Assembly: GCF_035594765.1 (NCBI RefSeq) | Contig: NW_026943819.1 | Coordinates: 18,712,703-18,776,702, forward strand | Reading direction: 5' to 3' | Length of the DNA: 64,000 nt | DNA from: Anolis carolinensis | Lineage: Eukaryota | Shown: positions 3,102 through 56,549 of the stretch, piece after piece | Layout of the letters: every line of letters starts with the position of its first letter | Numbering within the stretch: position 1 is the stretch's first letter | Program-made: the position numbers and the translations under genes | The notes under the pieces: generated by a model | What the model was told of the DNA's origin: nothing | Seen by the model: the letters and a program-made list of their open reading frames with translations, nothing else | Databases searched by the model: none

Positions 3102-3954
3102 GTATGACACAGCAAACAAGATAGATATGCTGGATTTCGTATCACAAAATCACAAGTCGAACACTTCCCAAGTGTCTAGGACTGTGTGATGTATTTTTGG
3201 ATGATGCGTGCAGATCCCAGTAGGGGTGGCCTTTTGCAGTTGGCAGATCATAATTTTGTCAATGTCTATTGTTTCCAAATGCCGGCTGAGATCTTTTGGC
3301 ACGGCATCCAATGTGCCGATCACCACCAGGACCACCTGCACTGGTTTCTGCCAGAGTCTTTGAAGTTCAATCTTGAGGTCCTGATAGCAGCTTAGTTTTT
3401 CCTGTTGTTTTTCGTCAATGCTACTGTCACCTGGGATGGCGACATCAATGATCCAAACCTTTTTCTTTTCCACAACTGTGATGTCTGGTGTGTTGTGTTC
3501 CAGAACCTTGTCAGTCTGGATTCGGAAGTCCCACAGTATCTTTGCGTGCTCGTTTTCCAATACTTTTGCAGGTTTGTGATCCCACCAGTTCTTTGCTGCT
3601 TGGAGGTGGTACTTGAGGCATATTTGGGCCACATAGTTGTGCCTCCGTTTGTAGTCTGTCTGTGCGATTTTCTTACAGCAGCTGAGGATATGATCAATGG
3701 GTCATCAGCTGATTTTTTGATCTTGGCCTTAATTGCATTTGTTCTGATGACTTGCTCCTGGGCTGCAAGGATCAGGCCTTCTGTCTCCTTCTTCAGGATC
3801 CCATTTGTGAGCCAGAGCCAGGTCTTCTCCTTATCAGCTTTTCCTTCAATTTTGTCAAGGAACTTTCCATGCAATGTTTTGTTGTGCCAGCTGTCAGCTC
3901 TAGTTTGTAGTGCAGTTTTCTTGTACTGTTTTTTTGTCTGCTGTGCTTTGAGGA

Positions 3955-5605: not shown

Positions 5606-5740
5606 CAGTGGTTCTCAACCTATGGGTCCCCAGATGTTTTGGCTTTCAACTCCCAGAAATCCTAACAGCTGGTAAACTGATTGGGATTTCTGGAAGTTGT
5701 AGGCCAAAACACCTGGGGACCCACAGGTTGAGAACCACTG
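5606..5740. mobile_element. hAT-type MITE
   Basis: TIR CAGTGGTTCTCAACCT...AGGTTGAGAACCACTG; perfect 8-bp TSD TGCTATGC. Confidence 0.92.
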
Positions 5741-32237: not shown

Positions 32238-35200
32238 TATTACATAGAAATATAAATTCATGTGCAGAAAAAAAGCTGTTTCCCATGCAAGAAATATTGT
32301 TTTATGTTAATTACTCTTGTGCAAATTTTGTACAAAATACAGCCCCCCAAATCAATTATTTGCTGCACAAGACTAAGCTTCTTATGGCTAGGAAATAATG
32401 TTTCTGTACAGAAATGTCATTTTCTGAGATATTTCCTAAACAAAGCAGTCTTTTGTACATTTTGCATAGAATATGTTCAAAAGTGCATAGAATTTGTCAT
32501 TCCAGGATTTTTTCTTCACACACATCCATTTTTCACCATGTTTCTTACCTCGTTGATTTACATCCAGAAACCTATGTCCTCTCTAAAGGTTTTCTGGGTC
32601 CTCAAGCCCATATTTTTGGGTCATTTTAATAGGCTTCACTATTTTATGCATTATTCACAGTAACTCCAGGAATGTACCTGCATGTATATGGGATCATGTA
32701 TATTATTTTCAACTGGACAACACATCTAATGACGTAAGGCAAATTGTTTAAAAGAAAGAGTGCTGGTTTTTCTCTGTTCTGCCTCTGAAACAGCACTTTG
32801 TTCCCTGATACAGCTCGTTCTATGCTTGCTTATACCATCCATCCCCATTTTTGAATGACTACTATCTTGCCTGATGTATACTTTTTTGGGGACTAGCCAT
32901 TTCCATCCTTTCATGACATCAATTTTACTGCTTTCCTCCACTTTGGCGTTTCTTTACATGCTCACAATGTGGGCATTTATGGGAAAGACATGAGCAGGAC
33001 AGTGACTCCAGAAACTAAAATTAGGGAAGGGATGGTCAATGAAAGAGTTGTTTCTATCAACACTTTTTAAATCAACCCACAAAGGCCATTTAAACATCCC
33101 ATACTGTCCTCACATTTAAAGCACAATGTCTTCATTTCTCCCTCTCTTCTTCCCACTATGACTCTTTCTTTTTCTTTTTAAAAAACTTATCTTCATGGGC
33201 TCCTATGTAAAAAGAAAATTCTTTCACCAAGCAACTCCAGTAGTAAAGTGCTCCATTTAGAAAATTCCTAATAAATCACCAAACACAATTGCTGCTAGAA
33301 TGCCAAATTTGACAAATGGAAAATAAATTGCACCAACCCTGACAGTTGAATAAGTATGTTTTTTTCCTGATATATTCACAAATGAGGCATTTAAAAACAA
33401 AAACAATAGTTCGCCAAACACCCTTACTGGAATCAATGTTGCCATTAACACAGCACCTTAGGACATAAAAGAGTTTAGCTGTAATAATTAAAATAACTAT
33501 TTCCCTATGATTTTTTTTCATTTTCAGCAACTATTATAGGTCAGTTGCATTACAATTGTCACTTTACAAGGGATACGTTCATTTATTTTTATTTATTTTT
33601 TTGCACTGGAAATAAATATTTAGCTACTTTTATAGTTGCATGGGTGGCAGAAGACTTGTCCACGTAGTTTATATTCTGGTTTCTGCTTGTAATGGCAACC
33701 TAACACATTGTATGGCATGTTGAGGAAACACCTGGCTGAAAACATGGAAACAACAAAGGATTAATTAGGACGGTCTCTACCAAACAAGGACAGCTGGGAG
33801 AGTATGTGAAATGGGCATGAATGTATTGTGCACCAGCTTGTAACAATTATATTTTAAAAATTAATTACTGGGACATCATATCCATTTTGGAATCAGGAAA
33901 GTACTTTAAAAAACAAAACTATAACAGAAAATATGTTACTAAACTTCATGATCCCAACTAGTTATGTTAATAGGCACTTTTCAAAACTCTGTTACATATA
34001 TATTTATACCATCAGTACAAATTCACTTAATTTTAGCCAACTCCCCTATGTGCTTTCTCCCATTTAAAATCATCACTTGAAATCATTAACGTCTTGAAAA
34101 TAATCAAATACACATTTAGAAATTTCTCAATTAATAAACATATAGATTCATCATTTCCCTCTCCATGCACAATTTATCCTACCAAATGGAACCACTCCAC
34201 AGCAAAGTTAATTTCCTATTACAATCATGCAGGGTTGGAATTAGGTTTGTAACAAGTGACAGTCGATGTCAATTTGTCCATATTCAGGGAAACAGATGGA
34301 AATCACAGCAGTAATAATTAATAATGCCAATGCAAAGAGAAAAGAGTTGCCCTGAATCTCTGATTGTTTGGGAAATGGGGGGGAAGAAGCACTTGCAAAC
34401 TTCATGAATCTACTACAAAGTATTCCAAGTGTATAGGAGGGGTTTTGAGCTGCTTCACACATGTTTATACCCTCTATAGTTTAGAAGAGGACATACTCCA
34501 GTTTCTATTTAACTCCATGAAAGAATCAGTTTGTAATTATCATTTTTAAGGTTATCTTTTTCATGTGCCTTTTATCCCTAATACTCACATTTTCATCTCC
34601 AGTTTTTTTTGAGTAGTCATACTATTCAATGGGATGTTGTTCTTTCTAATATGTACGTCTTGGTGGCCAGTCTTCTATAGCATGTAAACCAATTTTGATG
34701 CAAGCTTTTGACTGGATAATTGTTTCACAAAATGAGAAAAAGTGAATACATTATGTAAAGCATACCTTTCTTTGGTTTTCTATATTGAGTGGATACATGT
34801 GGTTTACATGAATGAATTAATAGGTAAAGCAAAACCAAATCCATTTCTCCATTACCTACCACTTACAGGTGCAAATGTGAACTTTCTTCACTGAAAACCA
34901 AACACATTTGTAGGGATACAATATCTGTAATTACAAGTTGCTCAAGAATGCACTTAGGTCTGTCACTGTGGCTCACTCACATCAAAATCCCTAGTGGGCC
35001 GTTGCCTACGGCAAGCCGGTATATCCATTGATTCCCTCTGGATCCATTCTAAAAAGAAGTCTGAGCTAAGCAGTGGCATAATGTGATTCCATATTTAGCA
35101 CTGGACGGCCTCATTTTGTCTGGAGTCCATCAATAACTTCTTCCATTTGGTCAAGACTGAAGATGGCAGGTGCAAAATAGGGATGAGGAATTGGGATCCA

Positions 35201-35280
35201 GGCTGTTGTTGGACTGTAACTCTTTGAATAAGAGGAATTTAATGCTGCACTGCAGCCACTCTAGCTTAATGCCCTTAAGG

Positions 35281-35415
35281 CAGTAGTTCTCAACCTGGGG
35301 TTCCCAGATGTTTTTGACCTACAACTCCCAGAAATCCCATCCAGTTTACCAGCTGTTAGGATTTCTGGAAGTTGAAGGCCAAAAACATCTGGGGACCCCT
35401 GGTTGAGAACCACTG
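35281..35415. mobile_element. hAT-type MITE
   Basis: Same family as 5606; TSD CCTTAAG(G/C). Confidence 0.9.
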
Positions 35416-35612
35416 CCTTAAGCAAAGAACCAGTCTTTCCACTATTTTGTGCAGAGCAGACTCCTTAGCATTACCTGTGTCTTATGAATAGGAATTGACA
35501 AGACAGGTAGCTGCATCTGACACTAGCACTACCACTAACAGTATCCTTTTCTGTAACAGAGAATAGGAGGGTCCAGTTTAGTGGCTAAAGTTCAAGGGAC
35601 AAAAAGTAGATA

Positions 35613-36352
35613 CAGTAGAGTCTCACTTATCCAAGCTAAACGGGCCAGCAGAAGCTTGGATAAGCGAATATCTTGGATAATAAGGAGGGATTAAGGAAAA
35701 GCCTATTAAACATCAAATTAAGTTATGATTTTACAAATTAAGCACCAAAACAGCATGTTATACAACAAATTTGACAGAAAGAGTAGTTCAGATAAACCCT
35801 TAATAATCTTCTCTTGGCACGGACTGGGTGTCTTTTAATACCATCTCTGTATAGCAATAGTTCCTGATTATGGCACATCTGGGAGTCGGGTAATATAGCA
35901 CATTCCTAGGAAAAGGAAGGGCGAGAAGGATCAACTCTGATATAATTATTTATATTCCCATGTTCATCCCTTTCTAGGAATATTGGCTTCCTGGTGTCAA
36001 AATACAGTTTATAAAGGCTAAGGATAAATACAGTAGAGTCTCGCTTATCCAAAGTAAACAGGCCGGCACAACGTTGGATAAGTGAATATGTTGGATAATA
36101 AGGAGAGATTAAGGAAAAGCCTATTAAACATCAAATTAGGTTATGATTTTACAAATTAAGCACCAAAACATCAGGTTATACAACACATTTGACAAAAAAG
36201 TAGTTCAATACGCAGTAATGCTATGTAGTAATTACTGTATTTACGAATTTAGCACCAAAATATCATGATGTATTGAAAACATTGACTACAAAAATGCATT
36301 GGATAATCCGGAACGTTGGATAAGCGAGTGTTAGATAAGTGAGACTCTACTG
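35613..36352 (+). mobile_element. Composite Tc1/mariner MITE: half MITE + 240-bp captured DNA + full MITE
   Basis: Outer TIRs with TA; 35791-36030 identical to 41141-41380. Confidence 0.88.
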
Positions 36353-37329
36353 TACTTTCATCAAGCACCATGCTTGCTACTTTGACTGACAGGAGAGAGA
36401 GTAAGAGACGGCAGGCAACAGATGGAGGCTGCCCTTGGTTCGAGGTCCAGGAACAATGCCATGTTGAATCCAATAGTACTTATGGTCCTGGAAGGTAGTA
36501 GAACACACAAGTCTATCCTCCAGTATCTTACAAACTGTTACCATGTATTACCAGAGACAATGCTTAGGGCAACTGCTTCAGTCTACTTCTACACGGTCCG
36601 TCCTGCCATATGCCCTGTTCCTATAAGGATCAGAATGGGGCAACAGAATTGGGGGAACTTGCATTTGTGAGCACCTTCTTTAGCCAAAGCCCTAGAAAAC
36701 CCCGTAGCGATGTACCAATTTATCTGATGCAAACAAAAGCCCTTCAGAAAAAAGTGAGGAGTCCCAGCTGCAAGCTAAGCCTGGCTTGAGCTCCATGAAT
36801 CCAGGTTCCAGAGCGACCCTATTAAAAAGCCATGTCTCTTCCATTAGAAGAAGCATAATTCCGACTTGGTGCATCCCAGGCAACAGTCCCCGGCAATTGT
36901 GTTTGTCTCTCTACTCGAGCTAAGAAATTAGTTATCTGTCTAAAACAAGCCGGCAGTTTCAAATGGTGTTTTTGTGCAATTTGCATGCCTCAACAATGTT
37001 TTATGTATTATGCTGCTTATAAGCTAAAATGTACATGCACGCTTCTGCAAATTTAGGTAAATTATGAATAAATTAAATCTTATCTAAATAAACAAGTGTC
37101 TTTTTGAACAGGAATGCAAGCTGTCATGAATATTTAAGTGGACAAGGATAAATCCTCTCCATACACTATTACTTCAAAGAGGATTTTCTAGCTTCCTGGG
37201 TTTTAGGAAGGGGGCTTTTTCAGATAGGTTTTTTTTTTAAATCAGAGAATTCAGAAGAGAAGAGGAAGGAAGGAAAATAGGTAGGTAGGAAGAACATGAA
37301 GCCTTAAGGTACTGTTACTGATTAGAAGG

Positions 37330-39165
37330 GAAAGAAGTATTCAAGGATTGCAAATCAAGACTGATAGGGAGTTAGGCTTCACCTAGCTAACTTAAACACA
37401 TTCAAATCTGCAGGGCCAGATGAAGTGCATTCCAAAGTATGGAAGGAACCTGCTTGATGTACTCTCTGAACCATTTGCCATCATTTTTGAGAAGTCATTG
37501 AGAATAGCTGGAAAAGGGCAAACATTGTTCATCTTTTCAAAAAATGGCAAAAAATGCCCAGGAAATGACAGACTAGTCAACTTGACCTCAACAGCAGGAA
37601 ACAAAAATATTAAAATTGATTATATGTCTATCTTCAAGTATCATGATGACAATCCAGTGATCAATAGAAGCCAGCATGGGTTTATCAAGAACCAATCCTA
37701 CCAAACTAATATTATATCTTTTTTTCGCATCACAAGTTTAGTAAATGGCAAGAAAGCTGTGGATGTCATTGATCTGGACTTCAACAAACCCTTTGATCAA
37801 GTCCCCCATAATATTTTGATCAACAAACTGATTAAATGTGAAATAGATGAGAACACAATTAGATTGACCATGGTTTTACAATGAATTATGGATCCAAGAG
37901 TCATCATGAATGACTGTGCTTCAAACTGGGAGGCGGTTGTACCCTGTTTCCCTGAAAATAAGACATCCCCGAAAAATAAGACCTAGTAGAAGTTTTGCTG
38001 AATTGCTAAATATAAGGCCTCCCCCGAAAGTAAGACCTAGCAAAGTTTTTGTTTGGAAGCATGCCCAGCACCTGCCAAACACAGTTTGTCTGGTTATGCT
38101 GGTTTGTGATGACAACTACTGTACAGTATATAATAAATGTTCATGTTTTAGTTCAACAATAAATGTGAATTCTTCTTCATGGAAAAACAAGACATCCCCT
38201 GAAAATAAGACCTAGCACATCTTTGGGAGCAAAAATTAATATAAGACACTGTCTTATTTTCGGGGAAACACGGTAAGTAAAATGCCTCAGGGTTTTGTCC
38301 CATGGCAATTACTCTTTAATATTTTTATCATTGTCTTAGGCAATGGGGCAAAGGAATTTTTTTTATCAAGTTAGCACATGATATTAAACTTGGAGGGCTG
38401 GCTAACACATTAGAGGATAGGGACAGTATTCCAAATAGCATAGATAAATTAGAAAGTTGGACAGAAATCAATAACATGAAATTTATTGGACACAAATGCA
38501 AAATTCTACATTTAGGCCACAAAAACCAAATGGATGGAGGATACATGGCTCAGCAATACTAAATGTGAAAAGGACTTTGGGATTATCATAAACTAAAAAG
38601 TGTGATTCTGCAGCAAAAGTGAATGCTATTTTACCCTGTGTTAATAGAAGCATACTTTCCAAGCTGATGGAAATAATAGTCTATATTATATTCTGGTCAG
38701 GCCTCATCTGGAGTACTGTGTTCAATTCTTTTAAGAAGGATACAGGCAATTTGGAGCAGATTCAGAGAAAGTCAATAAGGATGATGAAAGGTATGGAGAA
38801 TAAAAGATATCCAAAAAGGTTGAAGGAGCTGGGCATGTTCAGCTTGGTGAAGACAAGACTGATGTGACTGCACTCTTTAAATACCACAAGGACTATCATA
38901 GAGAGGAGGGAGCAGGCCTGTTGCCTCAGAGGGTAGAACCAGGTCTAATGGTTTGAAGTTGCAGGAGAATCAATTTCAACTGAACATTAGAAGGATCTAA
39001 TGTAGGGTGGTTAGGCAATGGAACCAGTTGTTTAGAGAGGGGGTGAGGTATCCTTCTCTGGATTTCTGCAAAAAGAGACTGGGGATATTGTAGCTGGAGA
39101 TTCTGCACTGAGCAAGGGGCAGGACCTGGTGGCTCTTGAGGCTCCTCCAACACTATGATTCTATA
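37330..39165 (+). mobile_element. Old degenerate CR1 LINE (RT region to 3' end), split by a MITE
   Basis: SQHGF...VDVIDLDFNKPFDQVPH, PQG and ADD-like remnants; ends ccaacactatgattctat. Confidence 0.88.
37942..38273. mobile_element. Tc1/mariner-type MITE, third family
   Basis: TIR CC(G/C)TGTTTCCC(C/T)GAAAATAAGACA; TA TSD. Confidence 0.88.
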
Positions 39166-39357
39166 AATGTGCTGTAAAGATGAGCACTGGGTATAAATCA
39201 ACTATCAGTTGGTTCGTTTCCTGGAAGTTGCAGGGAAACGTATTTGTGTCCATCACTCTGGCCATTTCTCTATTTTAGAAATCAGTCAAGGCTTCAGCAG
39301 GATCACTACCAATGTAACAGGAAACCCAAAGAGGCATCAGGAATCCTTCTGGATGCA

Positions 39358-40276
39358 TGCACTACAAACTAGAGCTGACAGCTGGCACAACAAAACATTG
39401 CATGGAAAGTTCCTTGACAAAATTGAAGGAAAAGCTGATAAGGAGAAGACCTGGCTCTGGCTAACAAATGGGACCCTGAAGAAGGAGACAGAAGGCCTGA
39501 TCCTTGCAGTCCCTTCGGGGAGATGGGGCGGGGTATAAAAATAAAGTTATTATTATTATTATCATAGCCCAGGAGCAAGCCATCAGAACAAAGGCAATTA
39601 AGGCCAAGATCGAAAAATCAGCTGATGACCTAAAATGCAGACTGTGCAAGGAAACCGACGAAACCATTGATCATATTCTCAGCTGCTGTAAGAAAATCGC
39701 ACAGACAGACTACAAACAGAGGCACAACTCCATGGCCCAAATGATCCATTGGAACTTATGCCTCAAGGACCACCTCCCAGCAGCAAAGAACTGGTGGGAT
39801 CACAAACCTGCAAAAGTATTGGAAAATGATCACGCAAAGATACTGTGGGACTTCCGAATCCAGACTGACAAGGTTCTGGAACACAACACACCAGACATCA
39901 CAGTTGTGGAAAAGAAAAAGGTTTGGATCATTGATGTTGCCATCCCAGGTGACAGTCGCATTGACGAAAAACAACAGGAAAAACTCAGCTGCTATCAGGA
40001 CCTCAAGATTGAACTTCAAAGACTCTGGCAGAAACCAGTACAGGTGGTCCCGGTGGTGATGGGCACATTGGGTGCCGTGCCAAAAGATCTCAGCTGGCAT
40101 TTGGAAACAATAGACATTGACAAAATTACGATCTGCCAACTGCAAAAGGCCACCCTACTGGGATCTGCATGCATCATCCGAAAATACATCACACAGTCCT
40201 AAACGCTTGGGAAGTGTTCGACTTGTGATTTTGTGATATGAAATCCAGCATGTCTATCTTTTTTGCTGTGTCATAC
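39358..40276 (+). mobile_element. R4/Dong-clade retrotransposon, 5'-truncated, with 58-bp insertion
   Basis: CRLCKETDETIDHILSCC zinc knuckle, RHN, PDI..D..EK endonuclease in ORF 39504-40202. Confidence 0.93.
39510..39567 (+). mobile_element. Minimal L2-like 3' tail inserted into R4
   Basis: tcccttcggggagatggggcggggtataaaaataaag(tta)n interrupts cttgcag|cccaggagc, which is contiguous in other copies. Confidence 0.85.
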
Positions 40277-40293
40277 AATAAAATAATAATAAA

Positions 40294-40294
<1 letters not shown>

Positions 40295-40344
<50 letters not shown>

Positions 40345-40712
40345 TTATTTTTATACCCCACCTCCATCTCCCCAGGCGGACTCGGGGCGGCTTACAAATA
40401 CAAAATGAACATACAATAATATCAATACTAAGAAACACGCAAATGAAAATTAAAAGGCATAAAATAAATTACAATCGTTTCTCAAACACAAGTTAAAACG
40501 CAACGATAAAAACATAAAATGAACTCGGCAAAAGTGCACTGAGTGAGACTTGTAAACATGAAGGAAGTTAAAGTGCTCTAAAATCATGGGGAGAACCTTA
40601 AAATGGGGTGAACCCTGAGGTAACCATGCAGGTGCAACCAATCAGAGGTAACTGCTAGTATGAAAATTTAATGTACAATGGGCGGTAGTTATTTAAAAGC
40701 CTGGGCGAAGAG
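40295..40712 (-). mobile_element. L2 LINE 3' fragment with (TAA)n tail
   Basis: Minus strand LFAQAFK* at 40712-40689, UTR, gtaagccgccccgagtcc stem-loop. Confidence 0.78.
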
Positions 40713-41380
40713 CATAACCCTCCTGGGGTGAACCCCTGCGTTCTAGCATGTCTAAAAACCCCGGGTTTATGTTTCAGGTGTTTAATATATATTTAAAGCA
40801 CACACATTTTCCGTCAGGCACTTCTCAAATATTTTTATTCCCTCCCACCCCCCACCCTATAAATATTTGAGGAAGTGTATGCTGAGATGACTCAATTGAC
40901 TCCTGATGGAAAATTGATTCCTCACACATTTGTTAACTCCAGTATGAGGTTAACATGTCTCATCAGGTCCAGATCTCTATTATGCAGTTACCTGTTTCAT
41001 GAACACTTGTTTGCAGAGCAGTTAATACCAAAACTGCTACATCAAGACTCCTAAGATTTAATTGCATGCGTTCGTGAAGCACTTTGGCCTTTTAAAATAA
41101 AAAGGTGCTAGAGAAGGGCAAAGTGTCATTACCAGCTGCAGATAAACCCTTAATAATCTTCTCTTGGCACGGACTGGGTGTCTTTTAATACCATCTCTGT
41201 ATAGCAATAGTTCCTGATTATGGCACATCTGGGAGTCGGGTAATATAGCACATTCCTAGGAAAAGGAAGGGCGAGAAGGATCAACTCTGATATAATTATT
41301 TATATTCCCATGTTCATCCCTTTCTAGGAATATTGGCTTCCTGGTGTCAAAATACAGTTTATAAAGGCTAAGGATAAATA

Positions 41381-41703
41381 CAGTAGAGTCTTGCTTATCC
41401 AACGTAAACAGGCCGGCACAACGTTGGATAAGTGAATATGTTGGATAATTAGGAGAGATTAAGGAAAAGCCTATTAAACATCAAATTAGGTTATGATTTT
41501 ACAAATTAAGCACCAAAACATCAGGTTATACAACACATTTGACAAAAAAAGTAGTTCAATACACAGTAATGCTATGTAGTAATTACTGTATTTACGAATT
41601 TAGCACCAAAATATCATGATGTATTGAAAACATTGACTACAAAAATGTGTTGGATAATCCAGAACGTTGGATAAGCGAGTGTTGGATAAGTGAGACTCTA
41701 CTG
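41381..41703 (+). mobile_element. Tc1/mariner MITE (CAGTAGAG family)
   Basis: TIRs and TA TSD. Confidence 0.92.
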
Positions 41704-41777
41704 TACCACCCAACAATTGGATTTCCTGGAAAGCTACTCCCTAGCAGGTTTAGCATAGTGGCAATGAGTCTGAACTA

Positions 41778-42110
41778 CAGTAGAGTCTCACTTATCCAAC
41801 ATTCACTTATCCAACATTCTGGATTATCCAACGCAGGCTGCCTTTTAGTAGTCAATGTTTTTGTAGTAAATGTTGCAATGTTTTGGTGCTAAATTCGTAA
41901 ATACGGTAATTAGTACATAACATTCCTGTGTATTGAACTGCTTTTTCTGTCATATTTGTTGTAGAACATGATGTTTTGGTGCTTAATTTGTAAAATCATA
42001 ATGTAATTTGATGTTTAATAGGATTTCCTTAATCTCTCCTTATTATCCAACATATTTGCTTATCCAACGTTCAGCCAGCCAGTTTATGTTGGATAAGTGA
42101 GACTCTACTG
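41778..42110 (-). mobile_element. Tc1/mariner MITE (CAGTAGAG family, variant)
   Basis: TIRs and TA TSD; inverted relative to 41381. Confidence 0.9.
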
Positions 42111-42591
42111 TACAACTAAGGAGTAAAAATCAACAGGCAATGAGTATCAGATTTGTAGAATAGTTTCAGTACTTGTATGTTTAGAAGATGTATATTTATG
42201 ATGGTGCCAGTTTTGTGTGTGTGTTTCAGATTTGGTTGTGTCAGATGTAGTAGTTTTAGTGTTATATATCACAATTTTTTTCTTTGTATTGTTTTTTCTT
42301 CACTTCATAATAAAAAAAAGTATTAACAAAGTATCCACCACAAATTTACCTCTCAGCTTCAGTTTTCCCAACTGTAGTAACAAAGATAATGGAACTGATT
42401 ACAGAGTAGTTGTCAGAAGTCCAACCACACAAGGCTCATGAAGACTTGGCAGATTTGGAAGCACCATGATAAATACTTTTCAGTTCCATAGGGCTTTCAT
42501 GTATATCTAGTTACAAGCATTTCCTGTACTTTATCAATGGAATCCGCAATGCAATGTACTACAGAGTTTATTCAAAATTAATATCTAGAGG

Positions 42592-42728
42592 GTTTTTTTC
42601 GTGTCAGGAGCAACTTGAGTCACTTCTGGAGTGAGAGAATTGGCCGTCTGCAAGGACGTTGCCCAGGGGACGCCCAGATGTTTTGATGTTTTTACCATCC
42701 TTGTGGGAAGCTTCTCTCATGTCCCTGC
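42592..42728 (-). mobile_element. 5'-truncated A-tailed SINE (family of 55781)
   Basis: gttgctcctgacacgaaaaaaa on minus strand; TSD ATCTAGAGG. Confidence 0.85.
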
Positions 42729-43959
42729 ATCTAGAGGTTAGGAAGGCTATTATACACCTCCTAGTATCTATGATGGCTGGGAGCTTCTGAGAGATATAAT
42801 CCAAATAAACAACTTCTCCATGATTCTATAACCCATACAACAGCCCTGTGAAGACAGATTCTCTTGGCATCTGTATAGACTTCCCTCTTCCTCTAATGAA
42901 GGAAGGAGTTGTTCAAAGTGTACGTCAGTTTCTTTTCCAGCTTTCCTGTGTTTGCAGGACTTTATAAACATACTCCAAACATAATCCCAAAGAAATGAAG
43001 GCTAATGATAAAGATGCCAACACAATGGGACCAAGCAAATATTATTCTTAGATGTCAACTGGGCCTCTTGAGAAAGATATTTTGATCCCTTGTTGTCATC
43101 TATTTTTGTCCCCTTGTGACATCTAATCAATCAAGGTATGTTTCTTGGAGAGCCTGAAGAAAACTCTTTGGGATACAGTTCATTTACCTTCCCTGCCATG
43201 ACCAACCGCAAGACATTTTGAGATTGGAGAGATGCCAGAGGTGGGGGCAACAGATGACAAATGAAGTCATCTGAGGAAGGGAAATGGGACCACCCCCAAC
43301 CTCATGCCCTATCTCCTTTATATTTTAAAAAACATATAGTTTTGATGGCTAATCACAGAGTGCTGAGCCGTGAGGTCTATCCATTATCAAAAGGCTGCTT
43401 AACACAGAAACTGGGAGGCAGACTAGGAGCCTGACTTCATAAATCAAAGCTTGACAAGCACTCCCAAACTGATATAAAATAGTCCTTCTAACGTCTGTGG
43501 CCTGCATACACTCTATTCATTTTACTTTCTAAAATAATAGATGAATAGCAATCAAAAACAATCTATTCCCCTCTGGCAGGAGTCTCATGTCTTCATTTTT
43601 CAAATGGGCAATGATGTTGACTGAACAATGGTGAGTAAGTGAGGCAGGGCATGAGCAAGGAGCATCTACGTGAGGGACAACTGGCGATTAAGATGACACC
43701 AGGTCGTCTTGTGTCTCATGCACTCTTAAACACTAAAAACACATCTCCCTGTGCAAATATGTTCAGCTTAATTAAATACTTTGGGACAAGGAGCTCCACA
43801 GATAAATTGATGCTCTCCAGCTTTTGAATGCATCACACACTGATAGAGTCAGGGTCCTGAGCTGCATTTAGGAGATACAGAATTAATCTCTAGGGTTTTC
43901 AGGGTTTAAACTCAAGAACAGGAAAAATATACATATTCTTATTTGTATATTAGATACTG

Positions 43960-44161
43960 GTTGTTGAGGTTGGTCTGATGCACTTTTATAAATTTTTTTT
44001 ATAAAATGCTGTATTTCAATGTTTTAATTAGACTGTTATATGTTATGTTTTTAATTATGTTTTAGCTGGTAAATTTTGTTGTATGTTCTGAGCTTGGTCC
44101 CGCACGTAAGCCGCCCCGAGTCCCTTTGGGGAGATGGTGCTGGGGTATAAAAATTAAGTTG

Positions 44162-52943: not shown

Positions 52944-53092
52944 NNNNNNNNNNNNNNNNNNNNNNNNNNNNNNNNNNNNNNNNNNNNNNNNNNNNNNNNN
53001 NNNNNNNNNNNNNNNNNNNNNNNNNNNNNNNNNNNNNNNNNNNNNNNNNNNNNNNNNNNNNNNNNNNNNNNNNNNNNNNNNNNNNNNNNNNN
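52944..53092. other. Assembly gap (149 N)
   Basis: Directly visible. Confidence 1.
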
Positions 53093-56181: not shown

Positions 56182-56549
56182 AAGGCAGTGGGTAGCCTAG
56201 GTAATTCAGTTCAAAATGCAAGAGACACCACCATCATTTGTTGCTTGAAATGGGCATCTCAATCTCCTTTACATTAGGGACAACTCTGACCTGCACAAGG
56301 GAGATGAGCCTAAACAAAAGCTGGGGCTGAAATCTGAGAAGATGGTGTGCTTATTTGTCATTCCGCAAGAAGCTATTCTGTTTGCGACGGGTGCTGCATC
56401 AAACAAGATACAATTCTTTGCAGTCTGCATAAAATATCAAAAACTCAATGAAAACAACAGCCTAAATCCAATAATTAGTCTAAATTAGAATAGATCCCTA
56501 ACATAAGCATGGACTTACCAAGTAACCACCTGATTTGGTGAATCTACTA

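Follow-up and report, generated by a model that had tools for sequence, protein, structure and literature searches.

Elements in which DNA other than transposable element (TE) sequence lies between terminal inverted repeats (TIRs), known as Pack-TIRs, have been surveyed in 100 animal genomes, and that survey reports 370 of them (Tan et al., 2021, PMC8277862). Those present as a single copy lie mostly in cis to the parent sequence (160 of 281 within 15 kb) and show a median microhomology of 2 bp and small internal gaps, and in primates a plain element was found in outgroups for 91 of 97 (PMC8277862). The lizard row of the survey lists no Pack-TIR from 77 annotated copies, none of them TcMariner, and parents with a TE within 100 bp were excluded (PMC8277862). 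Recombination and cargo uptake have been reported among the DNA transposons of the anole genome, and the accessible portion of that study describes cargo capture for hobo/hAT elements and one Helitron family, not for TcMar-N7_AC (Novick et al., PMC3014272). Here we describe a compound of two transposable elements of the miniature inverted-repeat type (MITEs) within a 64,000-nucleotide stretch of Anolis carolinensis DNA (assembly GCF_035594765.1, contig NW_026943819.1, positions 18,712,703 to 18,776,702, forward strand; hereafter the window), which encloses a copy of unique DNA from further downstream. Its parts are designated by letters: A is the MITE at 35613, U the copied unique DNA and C the MITE at 36031; B is the donor MITE at 41381, G the inverted MITE at 41778, and D, E, and F are other copies in the window.

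The compound shares several traits with single-copy Pack-TIRs, in particular with those of the gap-filling kind: more than 100 bp of non-TE DNA are held in one TIR element whose target-site pair was kept, the parent lies in cis within 15 kb, the break is internal with 2 bp of microhomology, a single extra copy is present, and a plain element likely stands at the same site in other animals. The survey calls for 100-5000 bp of non-TE DNA between two ends with at least 10 bp of terminus, and here 240 bp lie between complete termini; it calls for one parent of at least 90% identity and 80-120% length, and the search of the window found one with 100% identity over 240 bp, each of four sequencing runs showing a single U contig. 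It also admits only parents without a TE in the adjoining 100 bp, and B starts directly after this one, at 41381. For this reason the compound was filed as a variant of the Pack-TIRs and not as a member; the Pack-type label given in an earlier reading of the letters alone (the sequence-only reading) is a fair description of it. Further copies at distant target sites, which would mark a multicopy Pack-TIR of the fork stalling, template switching and transposition (FoSTeST) kind, were not seen in the four runs. Unlike the Pack-TIRs of Tan et al. (2021), the parent abuts a MITE of the same family, half of which was also copied, so that one of the joins is seamless homology.

Composite non-autonomous hobo_AC elements resemble the compound in genome type, in the uptake of extraneous DNA and in recombination between elements, but they are amplified hAT families of 1.3-3.4 kb, whereas this is a single unamplified Tc1/mariner case whose source lies 5 kb away. 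In the literature covered, with subscription papers mostly outside its scope, no report of this locus or of flank capture from MITE to MITE was found. The general process is already known; the twist is a parent that adjoins a MITE of the same family, in a single case without sign of function or spread. The compound is likely to represent a rare variant within an established type of local duplication, or possibly a fault of the assembly.

Structure of the compound and of its MITE copies

A scripted comparison of the window with itself revealed 253 bp of exact identity between 35789-36041 and 41139-41391, in direct orientation with an offset of 5350, within a total of 568 bp aligned at 98.4% identity. 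The 240 bp of this run that are not MITE constitute U, and 35791-36030 is identical to 41141-41380, as had been noticed by eye, the exact run itself being longer. The U/MITE pair is the sole same-strand duplication in the window with at least 97% identity and at least 60 bp. A search for further copies of the 240 bp, proposed in the sequence-only reading, was carried out with BLAST within the window and gave no match beyond the donor copy.

The compound occupies 740 bp (35613-36352, + strand), is flanked by TA on both sides (35611-35612 and 36353-36354), and has outer TIRs that match at 21 of 24 positions, in agreement with the unit delimited previously; these features hold for the sequence as assembled. 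Its first 178 bp (35613-35790) are the left part of the TcMar-N7-like recipient MITE A, which differs from B at 19 of 180 positions and breaks at element position 180, where the CA at 35789-35790, shared with 41139-41140 at the donor, bears out the microhomology proposed earlier. An overlap of at least 2 bp is expected by chance at a frequency of about 0.17, so the microhomology is unremarkable alone. The U copy follows (35791-36030); it starts with CAG, like the TIR, and ends in the TA of the donor. Next come a MITE left half from donor B (36031-36207, positions 3-180), which carries an internal left TIR, five B-only sites and four differences from B, and a right part (36208-36352) that is likely the native right half of A, for which position 36333 is supported by other runs and the remainder we infer. 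At the donor, U with its TA occupies 41139-41380 and B, of 323 bp, 41381-41703, with TA at 41379-41380 and 41704-41705 (all on the + strand).

Seven copies of this MITE family were detected in the window. TA stands at either end of the compound, and likewise of B, D, E, and F; these four copies are 327 bp long including both TA, i.e., 323 bp. The first 20 TIR bases listed by Novick et al. (PMC3014272, Table 2) are matched 20/20 at 35613 and in D, E, and F, with 19 matches in C and 18 in B. According to that table, TcMar-N7_AC is 323 bp long, has a TA target site, a 24-bp TIR and over 5,000 copies, and no autonomous partner was found for it; the family mean divergence is 2.9%, and the related TcMar-N12_AC has 321 bp and 10.5% (PMC3014272). 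Pairwise, B, D, E, and F differ at 12-21 of 327 bases (3.7-6.4%), which lies between the means of N7 and N12 and above the 2.9% of TcMar-N7_AC. Judged by TIR, TA, and length, the compound's MITE family appears to match TcMar-N7_AC, TcMar-N12_AC being the alternative candidate. TcMar-N8_AC, with the same TIR and 468 bp, is ruled out by the length of 323 bp. The 24-base MITE end gave no matches in a metagenome scan, a result that is uninformative.

The second MITE of the compound seems to be a hybrid. Over positions 1-180, C is nearest to B, with four differences, the next nearest copy being 10 away; seen from donor B, C is likewise the nearest left half, with four differences vs 11 for the copy at 56548. 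C agrees with B at 15 of the 19 sites in this half at which A and B differ, and five left-half sites are private to the two. The motifs ggcacaacg, tcaggtt, and aacacattt, put forward earlier as diagnostic, do mark such bases at positions 41, 146, and 158, and the same holds for 15, 26, and 239: in all six, the base is common to B and C only, compared to the five other copies in the window. The right half (positions 181-327) behaves differently, since there B is nearest to the copy at 56548 (one difference) and C stands five away; toward all three of the other full copies C shows 6, 8, and 12 differences vs 1, 5, and 7 for B. The left part of C likely follows donor B and its right end is likely native to A, with a switch point that would fall between 36198 and 36333. 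The claim that a full second MITE had been captured holds for the left part, which follows B, and probably fails for the right end, which carries the A at 36333 native to the locus.

In total, C and B differ at nine sites (eight substitutions and one indel), four of them in positions 1-180 and five in 181-327, and no difference occurs in U. About eight vs none had been counted before; the count was nearly right, and the contrast is no puzzle, as five of the nine fall within a stretch to which the copying likely did not extend. The contrast gives a Fisher p of 0.012 over all sites and of 0.14-0.26 without CpG sites, and the left-half excess of C/B differences falls short of significance when CpG sites are left out (p 0.18). 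Gene conversion was considered as an explanation and dropped, because the CpG sites and the hybrid nature of C account for the contrast between MITE and U.

Origin of the insert

Read as an insertion, the event interrupted A between its positions 180 and 181 with 417 bp (35791-36207) that copy 41141-41558. We hold with moderate confidence that this insert arose by repair of a break near position 180, with the neighboring sister MITE B as template. Following a break in A near this position, the broken right end of A would invade B through shared MITE sequence, and synthesis would proceed leftwards through the left half of B and then 240 bp past the homology into U. After release, the new strand would be joined to the left broken end over the 2-bp CA overlap, giving A-left, U, B-left, and A-right inside the original TA pair of A, with no transposase needed. 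This route is supported by the fact that U abuts B at the donor site and that the original TA pair and the outer TIRs are intact. Priming by homology explains why the donor U adjoins a MITE of the same family on the same strand. It also accounts for the position of the first right-half difference from B, at 36212, only five bases past the break register of 36207. Ectopic repair or template switching between nearby MITE copies, as the sequence-only reading had proposed, continues to be the best reading.

Coupled homologous and non-homologous break repair was reportedly described by Richardson and Jasin in 2000 and by Woodward in 2005. Two sources present coupled repair or long-tract conversion as a repair route (PMC4888836, PMC3678771), and one of them reports long-tract conversion from mammalian cells (PMC4888836). 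The proposed event resembles one-ended (coupled) repair in its homologous priming, synthesis past the homology and end joining, and differs from those studies in that here the route is inferred from a natural allele.

The order of the steps might also be reversed: in a microhomology-first mechanism, a rightward fork would leave A at position 180, land on the CA at 41139, copy U, enter B, stall, perhaps at the inverted pair of B and G, and return to A by homology. The product would be the same, fork stalling and template switching (FoSTeS) has been described (PMC2583991), and B and G, 70 bp apart, are predicted to be able to form a long hairpin. This sequence of steps leaves to chance a 2-bp landing 240 bp before a MITE of the same family and strand, and no strong structure is predicted at the break in A (-1.6 kcal/mol, 51 bases), so we regard it as quite unlikely.

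A transposase-driven bypass of the element's end, in which B is cut out with 240 bp of left flank via a cryptic end and inserted into A, is largely refuted and retains a minimal probability. U begins with CAG like the TIR, and a young family could plausibly hop over short distances; against this, there is neither a TA target nor a TA duplication at 35790/35791, no remainder of A is found after 36354, the right end is A's own, and the same sequence still contains donor B and U undamaged.

The locus in other sequenced samples

A search of sequencing runs with 35420-36030 listed 24 runs, 19 of them containing all or part of the stretch. Four of the 24 were compared on 35423-36700, namely X1, X15, and X6 (organism A, the same species, from three studies) and X10 (organism B). 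All four consist of contigs, with filtered records and a low depth of 5-9; in Logan contigs, variants are collapsed once the graph has been simplified, according to the preprint (10.1101/2024.07.30.605881). Word shares were not used as genotypes, given that X15 reaches a share of 0.90 and has no left-flank record, evidencing the filtering. Each run has 23,000-82,000 family contigs inside the MITE, and joints there were not used to read the right half of A.

Each of the four runs has one unbranched contig across U, with a match starting at 35789 and 200-515 further upstream letters that are not of the recipient locus. Since these letters are unlike the recipient and the unique stretch upstream of the donor measures 539 bp, the contigs likely represent the donor locus. 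The U contigs of X1, X15, and X6 carry one other letter each and stop at 36052, which would fit the changed bases of B at 36042 and 36053. In X10 the match breaks off at 36031, the point expected if the B site is empty, and the U sequence shows 7 differences in 243 bases. MITE B is apparently absent in organism B, and its insertion would be either younger than that split or polymorphic.

At the recipient site, the right-flank record in X1, X15, and X6 starts at 36332 and its other letters are fully explained by 36395 and 36496; the A at 36333 is therefore present in these three runs, the same that show U once. Position 36496 is C in all three organism-A runs and T in the window, and 36395 is C in X1 only. 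Both flanks are joined to MITE ends in X1, where the record 35423-35632 links the left flank to an A-type left end with no other letters, and the right flank is so joined in X15 and X6; no single record crosses the whole element, and organism B gives no cover of the flanks. A MITE without U and with the right end of C thus likely stands at the recipient site in other animals. The comparison of alleles at 35613 advised earlier was in this way taken up, giving MITE ends at both flanks and a single U in X1, the right end in X15 and X6, and no record that spans the element.

The compound is not fixed, as evidenced in all four runs by one contig across U that comes from another upstream sequence and by no new join. 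As a gauge of age, four differences in 420 bp (0.95%, range 0.26-2.4) stand beside 7 in 243 in the comparison with organism B (2.9%, range 1.2-5.9). These divergences do not differ significantly (p 0.11), and the event was therefore left undated. No second location of U was seen: one contig at about single-copy depth occurs in X1, X15, and X6, and X10 showed no second location either. The suggestion of a potentially mobile compound is not supported, with no second location in the four runs and no autonomous partner found for the family (PMC3014272). Mobility lacks support also in that no further copy was seen and no partner transposase is known, and the outer end would likely face competition from the internal TIR and its TA at 36029-36054.

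Several observations weigh against the repair route favored above. No contig with the 35790/35791 join was present in any of the four runs, among the contig matches listed, and the best word share among the 19 runs, 0.95, equals what is expected without the join (0.952 if only the 28 of 581 words that span it are missing). Depth is flat over 35810-35852 in all four runs, where a join contig would add to 10 of the 43 letters. The ratio of U to flank depth is 0.62-0.72 in X1, 0.91 in X6, and 1.17 in X15, vs an expected 1.15-1.26 for a heterozygote and 1.30-1.51 for a homozygote; these ratios count against carriage, but X15 fits either a carrier or a non-carrier. If the stop at 36052 reflects the changed bases of B, the compound would be older than a base that is common at B, and this demands either age together with recombination or recurrent CpG decay. 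The T at 36266, at a CpG, is common to B and C only, consistent with a later switch or with repeated decay. The left/right contrast of shared vs differing sites is in itself not significant (p 0.29); firmer evidence for the hybrid status of C is the A at 36333 in other animals. Finally, the other samples give no independent support to a compound that is probably real in the source animal.

The T at 36266 would be explained by a switch after this site in a scheme of two steps: an unequal crossover of B with A first duplicates 5.77 kb in tandem and leaves a B/A hybrid MITE, after which a deletion at microhomology removes about 4.9 kb of the first copy. This scheme yields the same part order and the hybrid MITE, and the anole genome shows frequent recombination between elements and fast DNA loss (Novick et al., PMC3014272). 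It demands two events vs one and, if the G at 36212 is native to A, a coincidence of the deletion end at 180 with a switch near 171-185 (a window of 14/327); we hold it to be unlikely, with a small share of the total probability.

The absence of the join in four of four other runs is also what an assembly merge would give. In this case a real deletion of about 4.9 kb, running from position 180 of A up to where U starts, would exist on one chromosome of the source animal, and the assembler would return to the intact allele through the MITE, producing a spurious duplication. The letters predicted are the same, the window comes from a draft assembly with gaps (a single sized one of 149 N, at 52944-53092), and U is identical in both copies and in X1, X15, and X6 over 35810-35981. 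The merge needs, however, a mis-join across MITE copies that are about 90-97% alike and only 323 bp long, as well as an allele of B with four differences per 180 bp where nearby unique DNA shows 0-2 sites per contig; no other near-identical same-strand doubling occurs in the 64 kb, and a switch point near the break is not predicted. We consider the merge unlikely, while giving it some weight. The sequence-only reading had taken a lack of reads across 35790/35791 as its refutation, a test that is too weak, because spanning reads are also expected under a merged 4.9-kb deletion allele.

That a single chimeric read, or one deleted within a clone, was built into the contig is very improbable. The join absent from the four runs and the best word share at the no-join expectation would agree with it. 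At positions 14 and 72, however, B alone of the seven copies is changed and C keeps the family base, and the chance that random read error restored both is about 2e-5 (rough sum). These family bases indicate that the left half of C is not B's own reads reused, and its agreement with B and not A at 15 of 19 sites that it is not a blend of A and B reads. Judged by these bases, the left half of C goes back to B in a state that was earlier or otherwise different, which fits an aged real duplication or an old deletion allele merged by the assembler. Altogether, we are fairly confident that the compound was real in a cell, counting the three routes without transposase and the small share of the transposase-driven one, and an artefact of either kind is a distinct but minor possibility. 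It is likely a rare or population-limited, non-functional allele.

Implications and surroundings of the locus

If real, the locus offers the donor, the recipient, both joins, and a likely pre-event allele, all readable within 6 kb, and it illustrates how scattered MITEs can direct small duplications nearby even when they do not transpose. Compounds of this type are filtered out by the one animal Pack-TIR survey found, in which lizard TcMariner elements are unannotated. It can be speculated, as an unlikely but far-reaching reading, that the compound is real, segregates as an allele and captures one instance of a frequent route that has gone uncounted. By this route, in MITE-dense genomes, a broken MITE would prime repair on its nearest sister and draw the flank of the latter in between its own TIRs; cargo-carrying MITEs would be seeded in this way, for a transposase to spread later. 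Were such a route common, Pack-TIR surveys would miss it by design, and lizard Tc1/mariner MITEs would never have been screened.

With regard to coding potential, Pfam applied to 91 of 165 stop-to-stop frames of at least 70 amino acids gave only two retro-element fragments below E 1e-4, both under the curated cut-offs, and no host gene among these long frames, a search in which short exons would be missed. The sole open reading frame of at least 70 amino acids that overlaps U had no Pfam match, and the region 33000-44000 around U gave no Rfam matches. One of the fragments is related to RVT_1 (37396-37881, E 4e-6); the other, zf-RVT (39501-40199, E 9e-5), lies in a repeat at 39358-40290 with several copies of 89-96% identity in the window that end in ATT runs. 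An inverted match of 155 bp between 3760-3914 and 39358-39512 (98%), the only other match in the window with at least 97% identity and at least 60 bp, lies at the edge of the retro-element copies.

MITE G (41778-42110, - strand) is a related copy of greater length, with two short insertions in its interior when set against the other copies. It is placed tail to tail with B (41379-42112), 70 bp away and 86% identical, and the pair is predicted to fold into a DNA hairpin of -279.5 kcal/mol vs -48.9 for B alone, which makes G a possible hairpin partner in fork stalling. Two further elements lie close by. A 149-bp palindromic MITE of another family (35274-35422), with copies at 5606 and 51319, is located 190 bp to the left of the compound. 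To its right, a TA-flanked element of 336 bp (37940-38275) has ends like those of TcMar-N3/N5_AC and three internal 42-bp repeats, and is shorter than both lengths listed by Novick et al. in Table 2 (427 and 1,396 bp).

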